From positions 1 to 64,000 of the IMG/VR virus record IMGVR_UViG_3300044971_002537: a stretch of DNA of 64,000 nucleotides; one strand, given 5' to 3'. The notes under the pieces were generated by a model. It did not search any database, had not been told where the DNA came from, and saw nothing but the letters and a program-made list of their open reading frames with translations. Below, piece after piece: positions 2,896 to 46,213 of this stretch. A program made the position numbers and the translations under genes. The DNA comes from a virus. Every line of letters begins with the position of its first letter. Positions within the stretch are counted from its first letter, which is position 1.

Positions 2896-3052
2896 CGTCG
2901 TGAATTGCTAATAGTTCTTCATATGATAAATCGTCTAAGCTAGATATTCCATGTTGTGATTGTAGGTGTTGTACTAATTGATCTCGGCTAGGAAAAGACG
3001 ATCCATTAAGTTGCCACCTACGATAACTAATACGAGAATACGTAGTACTCAG
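2852..3052 (-). CDS. His-containing C-terminal extension of the 3049-3678 protein, in the -1 frame
   Basis: A 67-codon frame (LSTTYSRISYRRWQLNGSSFPSRDQLVQHLQSQHGISSLDDLSYEELLAIHDDDHNGVYNEANRSF*) has no ATG. It opens right after a TAA at an A8 run. Confidence 0.6.
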   Translation of the reverse strand: MSTTYSRISYRRWQLNGSSFPSRDQLVQHLQSQHGISSLDDLSYEELLAIHDDDHNGVYNEANRSF

Positions 3053-3678
3053 TTTTTTTTAGACCACTTAATATAAGTGTCATAAGACATTGAGCCGGTG
3101 AAGATTTTAGAGACTCCGTCCTTGTTCACATAAAAGAAAGATGGAATCGCTGTGTGCTTGAGTTTCAGCCTGTCAATCTCGTCATAAGATGCCTCATTAT
3201 CTAGATCAAGCACTTGAAGATCATTAAAAGCTTCTGGCCCAACATCCCAACCAGCATTTTTATGTTCATCATTCTTAAGTTTGGCAACGATATTCTTATC
3301 TACTGACACGCACGGTGGACAAACGGACGGTTGTGTAATTAATACTATTCTTGGAAAAGTATCTGGAGGCGTCTCTTTTGCCAACTTCTTACAGCCACAA
3401 TCTTTATCAGAATCCTTACATGGGCAATCTGTCAGGGAAGTGCCACCATCGTATGAGACTTTGCCATTTTTACATTTACATTCAGTGACTGGCTTTGGCG
3501 GTTCTGGCTTAGGGATAGGAACCAGATCATCAGCACCGATAGGTGCTACCATCATCATAGCACCAGCAATACCATAAGCATCAAGATCTTCAGCCGAAAA
3601 ATCGAGCACAGTGGGTGTACTCTTAGTTGGCATGAACATTATGAGTAGTATGATTGCTAGAATGAGGGCTCTTTTCAT
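3049..3678 (-). CDS. Exported thioredoxin-like protein with a Cys-rich linker
   Basis: Signal peptide MKRALILAIILLIMFMP; Pro- and Cys-rich linker; CPPC after a beta strand; cis-Pro-like AIPSF. Confidence 0.65.
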   Translation of the reverse strand: MKRALILAIILLIMFMPTKSTPTVLDFSAEDLDAYGIAGAMMMVAPIGADDLVPIPKPEPPKPVTECKCKNGKVSYDGGTSLTDCPCKDSDKDCGCKKLAKETPPDTFPRIVLITQPSVCPPCVSVDKNIVAKLKNDEHKNAGWDVGPEAFNDLQVLDLDNEASYDEIDRLKLKHTAIPSFFYVNKDGVSKIFTGSMSYDTYIKWSKKN

Positions 3679-28889: not shown

Positions 28890-29300
28890 TTAATAGCACC
28901 CCAAAATGGCTTTATCTTTACTGGCCGCGACGATGATATTTTTTCTTTCATATGCCAGACTCCCACCCATCTTCTTGTAGAAGTCCAAATATGTCCCGTC
29001 TGACCCATCATCGTTCTTGTTTAATCCGATTACAAACTCGACTTCGATCCCATATATCGTATTTACGTGTCCGGGACCAGTTTTTGGCCAAGCTTCTGTG
29101 TATGGTAGGAGCACCATAATCTCTGGAAGTTGGTTTATATCTATGAATAGTGTCTCTGGTTCTATGCCATTCCTTTTAGCGATCGCTATAAGTAAACAGA
29201 TAAGCCTTTTAGAGATCCTACCTTTGAACGAGTCAGAGTCTATGTCATATACCATCATGTCTCTATCGAGACCATCTTTGATGAGTTCGTATAGAGTCAA
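28890..29300 (-). CDS. Hypothetical protein resembling the C-terminal half of a phage major capsid protein
   Basis: DRDMMVYD...GRISKRLI.L...KRNG...LFI...TIYG...FY..MGGSLA...ILGCY; the similarity is from recollection only. Confidence 0.4.
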   Translation of the reverse strand: MTLYELIKDGLDRDMMVYDIDSDSFKGRISKRLICLLIAIAKRNGIEPETLFIDINQLPEIMVLLPYTEAWPKTGPGHVNTIYGIEVEFVIGLNKNDDGSDGTYLDFYKKMGGSLAYERKNIIVAASKDKAILGCY

Positions 29301-32300
29301 AGCTTTGCCTCCCAGCTTTGTGCCAAAGCATCTAATTCTTCGGGAAGAATATAATCCGATACCGAATAGTTTACCTCCATGCTGTATCGATTCACCAACC
29401 TTAGATCGCTCAGTAGTTCTTCGAGTTGAGACTTGGCAAATTCTATCATGATATCCGCAATACTGCCAGAGCAATCTGACCAACTTTCTCCGTTGGCCTC
29501 ATCCCACTCTTCGATCAATTTTCTCGCTGCTTCGTTCATTTGGTCCAGTCCGTAACAAATTGTTTCCAGTGGGCATACTCATCAGGGCTTAGACATGGAG
29601 TGGGCCCATCATCAAACAGATGCGGCATGTCTGGATAGGGGAATTCTTCGTAGAGACTTTCGCAATAGTGTAGAGTAGATATCTTTTTCAAGACATTCTC
29701 GACGAAGAATTCAATTTCCCCCTCGTAATTCTTAAGAGAGCAAGCGAACTCCCAAAAACCAGTTTCTTTATCGTAACGACTGCCACCATCTGGGTTTTCT
29801 ACCCTATCGCCAAAATCGTCTGGCATATAGGCTAGCATTCCGAAAGGAATAAAACCACACCGATCAAACCTGCACCATTTCTTTAGCGAGTCTGCCTCGT
29901 CGGGGAAATTATGCTGGTTAGTCTCGATAGACTTTTCCCAACGCATTGATTCATCGTCTGAGTGGAGAGAGGCGATTAGCCCCCTAAATTTTGGATGAAC
30001 TTCAACATGGGCTCTTAAGCCCGTATACATACCCATAGCTACGCCTCCCAATCATTATTTATATTGCAGGTTTTTATCTGATCCCAGAGTAGAGGGACGC
30101 CACCGGCGTCCTCCCAGTCTCTAAGATTCAGGAACGTACAAAACCCAGACTCTTGCTCTGGTTTCGAATGATCTCTTCCCCAAAATGGGCACAATCTCTC
30201 ACCCTCATAACAATATTGACCTGATGGGATTAGCTTCTGTTTAATCTCCCATACGGCCACACCATATGATATGGCTGTATTGTAGTCTGTTTGCTTTTCT
30301 TTTGGTATTTTTACGTAACCATCAGATAATAAGTCAATTTCCCATCGATTAACGTATCCTTTACTAGGATCAGCATCAGATACATTCAGGGCATACCAGA
30401 ACTCGTCACCCCTGACTAGGTTCCAGTTACCATTGAGAACATATCCTTGCTGGATTTTATCATTCTGGAATTTCTTGACTAGAACGGCAAGACGCAGCCA
30501 CGGCATGACATAATAGTTATCCATCTACTTCGCCTCGATTTGAGCTAATGGCTCACTTCCGAACCTCATTGGCACGTTATATTGGACTCCCCAGTATTCT
30601 GGCCGATCTCGGCCTTCAGCCCTCAATCGGTCCCACGCCAGCCTATGGCGAAGCACCTGCATTATATCCCAAGCTACAGTGCTTTCCGGATATATCTTAT
30701 TGCCAACCCCATAAGAGGCATTCTTCTCCAGCTCCGGAAAGATGACGCCCTTAAGAGCGTCAAATAGGTACTCTGAATTCCAATTGAATGAGCCGTTAGG
30801 CTCACACCAGCGGTCACCAAAAAGATTGCGTAGTTCGTCAATCTGCCCATGTTTTAGGCGTGAGTAGACTTCCAATGCTTCACAGATTATACGAGCCTGC
30901 TCTTTATTGATGGTGAGTGTGTAATCACCAGACGGTAATGATTCTTTGGAGTTCGTCTTCTTCATATTCGTCATAGTCCTCTTCTGCTATAACCTCGAAA
31001 TAGTATGGGCCACCAGTCGCTAAGTCTTCTTGAATACCTCCTGCTGGGATGAAAGAGTTACCCTCATCATCGGTAGCCTTGATGACCTTACAGTCACCAA
31101 GACCGGCATCGACTAGTTCTTTGCATTGTTTGAGTAGTTCATTCAGAGTCATTTAATTCTCCTAAAATTGAGATGCGTTTTGAGTTTGTAGCAATTTAAC
31201 AAGTGTATCAATCGCTTCTTCGCGAGTATCGAATGTCCCCGCTTGGCAGCAGTATGATTGACCACTTCTGACTTCAATGTGACCAACTTGGCCCATGGTC
31301 AGTGTCACTTCAATAATCTTCTCGTACTTTTCGTTGTCCAGACTTTCGCGTACTGAATAATGGCCAAGTTCAGACAGTATAGGATTAGAAAACCTTGAGT
31401 GCGTTATCATTTGATCCATCTTTCATTTTGCTGTACTAAAATTGAGATCCATCTGGGTATTGCCTATTTCCCTCTATGATTGTCAATTCATCAATTGCAT
31501 CTTTAAGGGCCTTATTAGTGGCCGAACGGGTCATCATAACACTCATAGACTGGCCACATGGACCAGTGCAATAGTGGATGCGTAAAGCCTCTAATCGCTC
31601 TACTAGCGACAGCCTGTCCCACTTTTGTGGGCCTTTAATCCACAGCATGTTCGGTTCCCTCGCGTAGGTCAGTGATTCGAATCTCTCTCCGGTCGGACCA
31701 AGCTTCCCGACTTAGCTTTTTCGCATAGGTCTGGGCAAGTTCAAGAGTCTCGAATTTTCTTTTACCGGACCACTCCATCATAAACTGGAAAACTCGATTT
31801 GCAACATATTTGTAGCGAGTTTCCACGAGAAACGGCTTATCTGACTTCTTGGGCTTCGCCCTAGCTTTGGTTTCATCGGGAGCATGAAATGCCTCCTCTT
31901 TTCGATCATTTGGGGATTTTTCCCAGTCATTCCTCATGACCAACCCTATCTAGCTGGACTTCCACTAAAGATGTACCCCTGAATCCATATTGTGGCATGA
32001 ACTCCATATGTAGAATTCTGATGCCTTCTGCGAATTTTACATTGAATTCTTCTGGAGTCATCGCCCAATCCCATCCATCACATTCCGAAAAATGCTCATA
32101 CTTCCAAAAGGTGGAGAGAGCATTTGCTGGGTCTACATAGCTGCTACTATTCTTGTTATATGAATCAGTACCACCATCATACTTGGTGATTTTTCCATCG
32201 TTGTCGATATGGTATACGGTTATGTAGTACATGGCTTCGCCTCTAGGTATATGGGCTCTGTAGTAAAATAGATATCGAATTCATCTATAGAACATTGTTC

Positions 32301-44206: not shown

Positions 44207-44891
44207 AATGTTGGTCTCGAAACCAACCGGACAGCCGTTAGCCTGCCTTTGTCTATTGCCGCCGACGAATTTGGCAGACTGCTACAAGAGGCCATGTTAG
44301 TGGCCTCATTGTACTACTTACTTCTCGTTTGTCGAGTGGAAATGAATGAGTTTCCTCAAAAATTCCCAGAGGGGACGAGACGGTCTTCCCTCGTATCCGC
44401 TGCCACCGGCAGCATCCACACTGAACACCTGTACATCAAGCTGTAGATCTGAGACTACCTCTTCGACCCGACCATCCTTGAGACAGATGACTACGGTCCC
44501 ATCCACCTTGGTGGTTCCATCTAGGTTTCTGGCTGGAGTTGTTTGGATCATGGCTTCGCCTATTTGTACGGTGGGTAAGTGAGCTTTGCTCACTTTTAGT
44601 CGACGACTACCTCAACTTCCAACATTCTACATCGCTCGACGGCAAAGTCAAGAGCGTCTTGGAACATTTTGCTCATATTGGACAGCAGGAGATCGTGCCC
44701 ACTATTGATAGCTTTGATCACGCCCTTGTGTTGGCGAGCGGCAGCGTCTTTTGGATCGCCGAGCTTCTCATATTGGAGCCAATTTGGCCACAAGTGGCTC
44801 TCCCAAACACAATAGAAGAGCATCATCTCTGCTGGGGTTCCACGGACTGAGACGACTTCGTTGTCGGAACTTTTGCTTACTTTGATCATGA

Positions 44892-45713
44892 TTAATTCTC
44901 GATATCTAGTAATGTGATCTTGTGACGATCCAAAACCCCAATAGCACAAAAATATGCTATAGAAACAACCTCAACACCTTCTCTTTTATCTGGAATCTGT
45001 GTGACCTTGTGAGTCTTAGCGTCAAACTTAAAGGCAGTATTAAAGCCCATAAGTGGCGGCAAGTGCGGTAACTGCGTAAGTACCATAGTATCTGGTCTGT
45101 CGCACCTAACCATTAGGCCAACATCTTCTTTGAACTTAAGCATGGCACAATTGGCCATGTGGTCTTGGAATGGTTGGCCCTTCCCGAGAAGGTGACTACA
45201 GATGACGTTTTCTGCGAGAAAAGGAGGAGAAGGAAACGCAAATCTTGCGTCAAGAGTTTCAGGACTGATGACGAACTTATGTCGTGGGGAATTGGTAGAA
45301 AGGATATGGGATTTTTCATACCCGAAAATCGCACGAGATTCGGCTCCTGCCGCAAATAAGGTATGCAGCATGTCGGACTCTATGCGTCTTTCTAGACCTC
45401 TAGCAAGTACTTCGTAAACTCTCTTAACGAGAGCTGGTCTGTCTTTATGCTCAGTTTTATATGTGACGTTCTGCTGGATCATATAGGGGATAATGCGAAT
45501 AGTGTGTTTACCATCCCCAAAAAAGTCGATAGGGAACTCAAGCTCTTCAGTTCTTGTAAAGAGCCGTGCAATATCAGGCAGCTTAAAATCACAAAAGGTG
45601 GCAAAGCGATCAGCGGCAAGGACGTTCGTGTTAGGAGTCGCAATAGCCGAGCCAGTGAACAAAGGCATAGCAGACAGGCCACAGAACTTAGCGAATGATC
45701 TTCTTGATAGCAT
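44892..45713 (-). CDS. Tat-signal protein, putative diverged major-capsid paralog
   Basis: N-terminal MLSRRSFAK..hydrophobic..AIA twin-arginine signal; the body has capsid-like motifs (see findings). Confidence 0.55.
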   Translation of the reverse strand: MLSRRSFAKFCGLSAMPLFTGSAIATPNTNVLAADRFATFCDFKLPDIARLFTRTEELEFPIDFFGDGKHTIRIIPYMIQQNVTYKTEHKDRPALVKRVYEVLARGLERRIESDMLHTLFAAGAESRAIFGYEKSHILSTNSPRHKFVISPETLDARFAFPSPPFLAENVICSHLLGKGQPFQDHMANCAMLKFKEDVGLMVRCDRPDTMVLTQLPHLPPLMGFNTAFKFDAKTHKVTQIPDKREGVEVVSIAYFCAIGVLDRHKITLLDIEN

Positions 45714-45728
45714 AATGTCTCCGATATT

Positions 45729-46005
45729 TAAAAAAACCTATGGTGCCGAAAGCACCAAATTCCAGATGCTGGTAATGCACCAGTTGCCACTTCCTACTAT
45801 ATTGATGGCATGCGGGTTACAGCCGCACAGCAGGATCATCTGGAGATTACGGTCTGTGATAGCTCTCCTATTAGACGTAGGATTACTCAGACCGGCGATT
45901 CTTTTGAGTGAACGCCCGTGGTCCCAAGAATCTGCTAAAGAAAACACCCTACCGGAATAAGCTTATCAACCCTTGTCTAAGGGGTTGCATCACCTATTCT
46001 GTCTC
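45729..46005 (-). ncRNA. Unclassified ~270-nt structured RNA ending in a terminator
   Basis: Nested stems (TCCAGATG/CATCTGGA closing three hairpins; CGGTCTG/CAGACCG; CAACCCC/GGGTTG) and a final TGGTGC-TTTCG-GCACCA hairpin before a T7 tract. Confidence 0.55.
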
Positions 46006-46213
46006 GCCTGAAAATTATAGAAGGCCAAGGGCCTTCCCACAAACCGCACAAGATCTTGCCCAATAGGGCCACATATCCGTATCGTGAACTAAGCTGTGGT
46101 CACACACCCTATGATGATGCCAATTCTTCTTAGCCTCAGTGATCTCTTCAGGAGTCACGTCCTCAAGGCGGGACCGCCCATTCTCTTTGACTTCTCTAAC
46201 AATAGGACCGAAC

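Follow-up and report, generated by a model that had tools for sequence, protein, structure and literature searches.

HK97-fold proteins are known as the shells of viruses and as cytoplasmic encapsulin compartments, and the substrates of the twin-arginine translocation (Tat) pathway are mostly cofactor enzymes. Here we analyse a gene of a large uncultured aquatic phage, lytic in type, that codes for a capsid-like protein with a predicted Tat signal peptide. The gene is located at positions 44892–45713 of the window, i.e. the first 64 kb of the 139,854-bp IMG/VR virus record IMGVR_UViG_3300044971_002537, which is estimated to be 72% complete and has 44% G+C. We find that it is an old duplicate of the gene for the phage's own HK97-fold major capsid protein (MCP), and the features of its leader make genuine Tat-dependent export to the cell envelope the probable fate of this duplicate.

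Several described systems come close to this protein in one respect or another. The T4 gp24-type vertex proteins are diverged MCP duplicates, encoded beside the MCP gene and devoid of export signals, that co-assemble with the MCP. Phages also produce envelope-located superinfection-exclusion proteins, including Imm and Sp of T4 and Llp of T5. The cEnc encapsulin of Kuenenia stuttgartiensis is an HK97-fold protein with an N-terminal signal peptide (bioRxiv 10.1101/085266), and HxS is described as a bacterial periplasmic system that blocks phage entry (PMC13128918). A 2026 review on how Tat evolved brings up phages in other connections only. We found no published equivalent of a Tat-tagged capsid paralogue in the literature searched; an earlier interpretation of the same DNA made from its letters alone (hereafter the sequence-only reading) likewise knew of no such description.

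A duplicate of the major capsid protein gene

The gene and the parts of its product are as follows.

44892–45713, minus strand: capsid-like gene, an MCP paralogue with a predicted Tat leader; 273 amino acids (aa), ATG start, placed from the list of open reading frames (ORFs) and from homologues
45719–45722, minus strand: Shine-Dalgarno sequence GGAG, 5 nt before the ATG
45639–45713, minus strand: predicted twin-arginine signal peptide, codons 1–25, with the arginine-pair (RR) codons at 45704–45699 and a predicted cut after A25
44895–45638, minus strand: predicted mature protein, codons 26–273; 248 aa, 28.3 kDa, isoelectric point (pI) 7.1, 5 Cys

The ORF exists exactly where the sequence-only reading had placed it. 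Its strand, which that reading had left unstated, is the minus strand, the plus-strand frame across the same interval being closed by many stops. The reading frame is intact down to a TAA stop at 44894–44892, and the translation contains all the motifs that had been quoted, namely the MLSRRSFAKFCGLSAMPLFTGSAIA N-terminus, EFPIDF, PYMIQQNVTY, the LVKRVYEVLARGLERRIESDMLHTLFAAG helix, ISPETLD, LGKGQPFQ and IGVLDRHKITL. The start is secure because there is a stop eight codons upstream of the ATG (the open frame spans 281 aa), the GGAG precedes it by 5 nt, and the same Shine-Dalgarno–ATG arrangement is kept in L006, a related 167-kb phage contig used for comparison. The deposited gene call P0001 (258 aa) begins at Met16; the RR motif is therefore missing from the deposited protein, and public gene calls have thus masked the leader. 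Among the relatives, the public call P0003 is cut short (in L033 its complete ORF carries the leader), and P0004 runs 24 aa too far upstream, across a conserved hairpin described below.

A family profile of the capsid-like protein matches exactly one other ORF in the genome, of 335 aa at 86144–87151 (L002:6145–7152), with an E value of 1.5e-5, or 4e-17 with a deeper profile. This ORF, outside the window, is the MCP, and it is the fifth gene of the head module.

80253–87151 of the genome, plus strand: head module, five genes ending with the MCP gene

In this module, the MCP gene is preceded by those of the large terminase (phrog_2, 3e-23), a portal-sized 676-aa ORF, a coiled-coil scaffold-like ORF of 439 aa and a cement or minor capsid protein (PF23982, PF22758). 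Alignment with the genome's own capsid gene, a check proposed in the sequence-only reading, revealed clear homology: comparison of the two families with hhalign gave a probability of 99.1% and an E value of 6.7e-19 over 198 columns, spanning residues 53–268 of the capsid-like protein and 61–332 of the MCP. A distant member of the capsid-like family, P0012, on its own matches both the capsid-like protein and the MCP (E 4.4e-7 and 9.5e-6). The MCP family has >4600 relatives in aquatic metagenomes. Its profile also links it to gp27 of Bacillus phage G, a capsid protein of solved structure (6wkk_A; E 2.9e-12, 22% identity by tblastn). The capsid family used for comparison in the sequence-only reading (EFPLDL, VVGRAM.VLE..F.KK, LSPEALED, LGE.QEYQ, FAVLDNRRVLL) turned out to be the consensus of this very MCP family.

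Against the Pfam family PF25209 (Phage_capsid_4), the capsid-like protein scores 13.4 bits (E 0.094, residues 28–156), below the 27-bit gathering cut-off. The phage's own MCP is likewise unmatched by PF25209; ESM Atlas neighbours carry this domain, which is a lead only. A sequence search of the PDB with the small family profile of the capsid-like protein gave no match, and PHROGs contain no family for the capsid-like protein, the MCP or the neighbours. No match to the gene or its 10-kb surroundings was found with tblastn and megablast among 50,697 phage records.

An AlphaFold (AF2) model of the capsid-like protein was built from a joint 25-sequence alignment of its family and MCPs, with a predicted local distance difference test (pLDDT) score of 81.2, falling below 50 only at residues 14–35, and a predicted template modelling score of 0.77. 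It supersedes a first model from six sequences, which was poor (pLDDT 59) and gave weak capsid matches. In the new model, residues ~35–273 are compact and comprise a short E-loop hairpin, the spine helix (93–130), the P-domain and a reduced A-domain. Foldseek returned 245 matches in the PDB at E≤1e-3, the best at 4.9e-8, and the top-ranked matches listed are all HK97-fold capsids or encapsulins. Independent structural alignment against representative chains with VIA superimposed 193 residues on HK97 prohead I (Z 12.5, root mean square deviation 3.4) and found 80 chains at Z≥8 across model residues 35–273. Thus, where the sequence-only reading had named the lack of a capsid-fold match as a ground for abandoning its proposal, a complete HK97 fold is predicted, and a shortened HK97-fold MCP paralogue is borne out by the profile searches, hhalign, Foldseek, VIA and the deletion map given next. 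A three-copy complex prediction of residues 36–273 scored 0.00, which is evidence in neither direction.

The capsid-like protein and the phage's own MCP have in common the fold and the EFP, spine-helix, SPE, LG..Q and VLD motifs, at ~18% identity. The capsid-like protein lacks a 22-aa part of the E-loop (MCP residues 79–100), two loops that follow the spine helix (13 and 10 aa) and two that belong to the A-domain (14 and 7 aa). It has gained a 16-aa insertion (residues 213–229), and the first part of the N-arm is exchanged for the predicted signal peptide. The predicted mature protein has a pI of 7.1 and 5 Cys, compared with 4.7 and 1 for the MCP. Members of the capsid-like family have 2–9 Cys per protein, versus 0–2 in MCPs, which is a weak hint at an oxidizing, extracytoplasmic compartment.

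With encapsulins, the protein shares a compact HK97 fold of ~250–280 aa, and SrpI (6x8m) is among its best structural matches (VIA Z 12.5). In contrast with them, it is encoded by a phage, in a 140-kb virus record, is derived from an MCP and is not a member of the encapsulin family. Encapsulins would be expected in a cellular locus next to a targeted cargo; the relatives of the capsid-like gene are all in phage-type contexts, the product of the 97-aa gene adjacent to it (see below) matches no cargo family, and no gene for a cargo with a targeting peptide was identified. That an HK97-fold protein can bear a leader predicted to serve export or organelle targeting has a precedent in cEnc, but the cEnc leader as quoted in bioRxiv 10.1101/085266 has no RR pair, unlike that of the phage protein.

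Homologues of the capsid-like protein are 20–61% identical. Sequence searches for its family yielded five clusters at 90% identity, and when 1.84 billion representatives were searched exhaustively with the profile, nine matches were obtained, of which eight are true clusters. The remaining match, P0013 (1350 aa), was rejected as an ankyrin-repeat false positive. One further IMG/VR contig was found in a search for related loci. In a maximum-likelihood tree, a single branch divides the leader-bearing proteins from the MCPs (100/100), and the end branches are 0.3–1.5 long in the former and 0.03–0.24 in the latter. L006 carries both genes, and relative to this phage its MCP is 90% identical and its capsid-like protein 52%. 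By these sequence comparisons, the capsid-like gene evolves several times faster than the MCP gene. Such fast divergence under a retained fold suggests an arms-race signature. Four contigs of metagenome-assembled genomes (MAGs) with MCPs at 50–63% identity show the MCP only, and the copy is therefore limited to part of the clade.

Clear MCP homology and a full HK97 fold are what one would expect of a virion or assembly component, i.e. a vertex (penton) or minor capsid paralogue like T4 gp24 whose N-terminal peptide is removed by the head protease, and vertex-forming MCP paralogues are indeed known. As with gp24, a diverged MCP duplicate is kept in the same genome. Unlike gp24-type genes, this one lies far from the MCP gene, codes for a leader and diverges quickly. 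It does not belong to the head module, from which it is ~41 kb away on the opposite strand, in a non-structural block. Its relatives have comparable surroundings, non-structural genes of large phages that include T4 Y07C-like genes, denV and those for dCMP deaminase, ribonucleotide reductase, PhoH and TROVE. It has also diverged much faster than the MCP partner that it would have to fit (52% versus 90%), its E-loop and N-arm contact elements are reduced, and most phages with this MCP have no copy, with eight true clusters against the >4600 MCP relatives. Because of the remote location and the rate difference, we regard a virion role as very improbable.

The N-terminal leader

The consensus of Tat signals is S/T-R-R-x-F-L-K. 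The leader of the capsid-like protein, S3-R4-R5-S6-F7-A8-K9, agrees with it at six of seven positions, near the N-terminus. It is followed by a 16-aa uncharged h-region (F10–A25) with a mean Kyte–Doolittle value of 1.4 (1.0–1.9 in relatives), ending with a c-region, A23-I24-A25, that has small residues at −3 and −1. The features on which the sequence-only reading had based a Tat signal, i.e. S-R-R-x-F-x-K, a hydrophobic stretch and AxA, are thus all present and, judging from the alignments, kept in all full-length relatives. The S-R-R-x-F-x-K layout, a mild h-region rich in Gly, Ser, Thr and Pro, and A-x-A are shared with bacterial Tat signals (E. coli SufI and TorA; PF10518, TIGR01409), and the SufI signal is close in length to the 25 aa of the phage leader. 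In contrast with bacterial signals, the phage leader sits on a capsid-fold protein rather than on a cofactor enzyme.

The RR pair is nearly invariant in all 11 family sequences that include the N-terminus (11/11). Together with the uncharged h-region and the Ala at −1, it is kept in all full-length relatives, the bodies of which go down to 19–27% identity. The residues at −3 to −1 in relatives are V-T-A, A-V-A, A-E-A, A-I-A, L-E-A, L-V-A, A-I-A, A-K-A and A-E-A. The sequence of the h-region itself varies, and leaders begin for instance with MLSRRMF.., MISRRNF.., MLNRRSLL.. or MKRRTLL... Among close relatives, the leader is 80–84% identical and the body 42–54%; the leader codons of this phage and L006 differ by four synonymous and three conservative changes.

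We applied a TATFIND-like rule to every ATG, GTG or TTG start of ORFs of at least 60 aa in the six frames of the 139,854-bp genome. One of 2077 candidate starts matched, that of the capsid-like ORF, and in the other loci the matches were family members and two of their neighbours only. Since the RR leader is conserved across relatives, under selection and unique in the genome scan, it is unlikely to have arisen by chance. Fast divergence and the loss of loops might also be read as signs of a decaying, functionless duplicate with an accidental RR N-terminus. However, every member seen has an intact frame (the contigs come from at least eight different samples), the leader appears to be under purifying selection, the Shine-Dalgarno sequence is conserved, and the fold is predicted confidently from co-variation. 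With leader, frame, fold and Shine-Dalgarno sequence all conserved, decay is hardly credible.

A relaxed RR scan of ORFs of at least 35 aa brought up no other convincing leader gene in this genome, and no shorter proteins sharing the leader (residues 1–40) were found. The only other candidate envelope protein from the relaxed scan is encoded by a 209-aa ORF at 3049–3678 of the window (minus strand), which has a very hydrophobic N-terminus of the Sec or membrane-anchor type (MKRALILAIILLIMFMP, mean Kyte–Doolittle value 2.7). We also considered that the capsid-like protein might be a lipoprotein, which we rejected because there is no lipobox before Cys11, a residue replaced by Ala in distant members.

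Three genes in a row at the locus of P0012, a distant member (L009:1769–3302), namely the capsid-like gene and the next two, code for proteins with RR leaders (MKRRTLL.., MKRRSFL.., MKRRNFL..). One of the two neighbours has a weak match to PF10518 (E 0.063), neither has a detectable homologue in this genome, and an ESM Atlas search with one of them returned low-score leads only. The arrangement suggests a small cassette of export-tagged proteins.

Several observations weigh against genuine Tat export. The Tat-signal models PF10518 and TIGR01409 are not listed for the capsid-like protein in a Pfam scan at E≤10, nor for 12 members with NCBIfam, although such short models are often dropped by HMMER filters. 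Unlike bacterial signals, the leader has no basic 'Sec-avoidance' residue in its c-region, and export by Sec therefore keeps some probability. It is also unusually conserved among close relatives, more strongly than a plain Tat signal requires, which could point to another use. HK97-fold proteins tend to assemble quickly into capsomers, and these would be too large for Tat. Relatives of the MCP occur in MAGs of many phyla, and a Tat system in the host is therefore assumed. Finally, phage-encoded TatA (PF02416) is absent from the 72%-complete genome.

The shortness of the leader (25 aa), the position of its RR pair at residues 4–5, the missing basic residue and the silence of the Pfam and NCBIfam models would all fit a working signal that is not specific to Tat, in which case Sec would export the protein in an unfolded state, or an uncleaved leader would anchor it to the membrane. 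In contrast, the RR pair is nearly invariant, and R-R-x-F/L is kept from 61% down to ~20% identity while the sequence of the h-region changes. The mild hydrophobicity of the h-region (1.0–1.9) is that of Tat signals, whereas the one Sec-like anchor of the genome reaches 2.7, and the conserved Ala at −1 argues for cleavage. We thus hold a Sec signal or an anchor to be an improbable explanation, and genuine export by the Tat route remains our preferred interpretation.

Gene neighbourhood and possible roles

The capsid-like gene belongs to a 41-kb block of leftward genes that includes those for an HD_4 hydrolase, an RNA ligase, a macrodomain protein and a GHKL ATPase, together with four tRNAs. 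The following elements flank it directly.

44596–44889, minus strand: 97-aa gene, which starts 2 nt after the stop of the capsid-like gene (TAA-tc-ATG) and has no signal peptide
45731–45757, minus strand: GC hairpin (45757–45741) and T run, 27 nt upstream of the start, found in a scan for terminator-like elements

In L006 (58% identity) and L031 (51%), the capsid-like gene is immediately followed by a homologue of the 97-aa gene. The 97-aa gene diverges as quickly as the capsid-like gene, whereas the upstream 75-aa ORF is 78–87% identical. No Pfam or PHROG match was found for the 97-aa gene. Given its position and its conservation next to the capsid-like gene, the 97-aa gene is a likely operon partner, translationally coupled to it.

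Upstream of the capsid-like gene, L006 retains the hairpin without the T run. The hairpin ends a gene-free stretch of 270 nt (45741–46014, minus strand) whose predicted folding has a z-score of −2.6, none of 100 shuffled sequences being as stable. This stretch has no Rfam match; it may be a small structured RNA or leader. In the segment 41000–51000 of the window, ARAGORN detected the four tRNAs (Arg-TCT, Leu-TAA, Trp-CCA and Asn-GTT), three of which are also found by Rfam at its gathering threshold; neither program found a tmRNA in that segment. psbA (PF00124) is absent from the genome.

Two further ORFs touch on capsid genes. The sequence-only reading had counted the capsid-like gene as the second repurposed capsid copy, the other being at 28890–29300. 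An ORF with capsid-derived sequence does exist there, at 28890–29483 (minus strand, 197 aa), but only a 42-residue A-domain stretch matches, residues 65–106 corresponding to positions 149–188 of the MCP profile (E 1.7e-6 in a search of the phage's own genome). It has no RR leader and no Pfam or PHROG match, and on the basis of this short stretch it would be a third capsid-derived gene. Directly after the MCP gene, a 531-aa ORF (L002:7266–8861, genome 87265–88860, plus strand) codes for a protein with DUF7487 and a DUF559 or restriction endonuclease-like domain; this ORF possibly represents a homing-type endonuclease gene that has invaded the head module.

The order HD_4 gene, 75-aa ORF and capsid-like gene is repeated in L006 and L007. 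Capsid-triggered toxic small alarmone synthetase (toxSAS) systems, namely CapRel, exist, and the conserved block with its RelA/SpoT-type HD_4 hydrolase, RNA ligase, macrodomain protein and tRNAs might accordingly harbour a decoy for capsid-sensing host immunity. The capsid-like protein would then stay in the cytoplasm or close to the membrane, its body binding the sensor without triggering it, and the RR leader, rather than delivering an effector to the periplasm, would hold the complex at the Tat receptor or serve to expel or dispose of it; rapid evolution would suit such an immune interface. However, the A-x-A cleavage site is conserved in all members and is needed only for true membrane crossing. 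The neighbourhoods of more distant members (denV, dCMP deaminase, ribonucleotide reductase, glycosyltransferase) are unrelated to that of this phage. No defence sensor or binding partner was identified. We thus judge a decoy function unlikely, if less so than the other alternatives to export.

The comparisons above show that the MCP gene was duplicated and that the copy lost most of the E-loop and several loops of the A-domain, had the start of its N-arm replaced by a predicted cleavable twin-arginine signal peptide and was relocated to the non-structural block. Tat export, which we favour, would take the following course. The protein would be made during infection and fold in the cytoplasm, where the host TatBC receptor would recognize its S-R-R-S-F-A-K motif. 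It would cross the cytoplasmic membrane folded, as a 28-kDa monomer, and signal peptidase I would cut it after A-I-A(25). Real passage across the membrane is favoured because the A-x-A site is conserved, and cleavage because of the conserved Ala at −1. The mature protein would act in the periplasm or cell envelope rather than in the virion, possibly jointly with the translationally coupled 97-aa protein.

The most likely role of such a protein is perhaps one at the level of the envelope in a phage–phage or phage–host arms race. More specifically, we tentatively suggest the exclusion of superinfecting phages at the envelope, a possible function but a doubtful one. The resemblance to Imm and Sp, Llp and HxS is that the product is addressed to the envelope, here by prediction, where the entry of a second phage's DNA can be blocked; Imm, Sp and Llp likewise come from non-structural blocks. 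There is no sequence or fold relation with these systems, and they use Sec, lipoprotein or membrane-anchor routes instead.

A bolder variant is that the trimmed, exported paralogue self-assembles in the periplasm into capsomer- or lattice-like arrays that shield the envelope from other phages, in which case the 97-aa protein might be carried across the membrane as a Tat hitchhiker. We find such arrays rather improbable; they would represent a third career for the HK97 fold, besides virions and encapsulins.

The design is rare in this lineage, with its eight true sequence clusters, yet it is old and under selection. The 25-aa leader makes it a simple test case that can be assayed in E. coli. 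If Tat export is true, a capsid-fold protein that a phage sends to the envelope of its host would put the HK97 fold to a new use and define a new class of Tat substrates encoded by phages.

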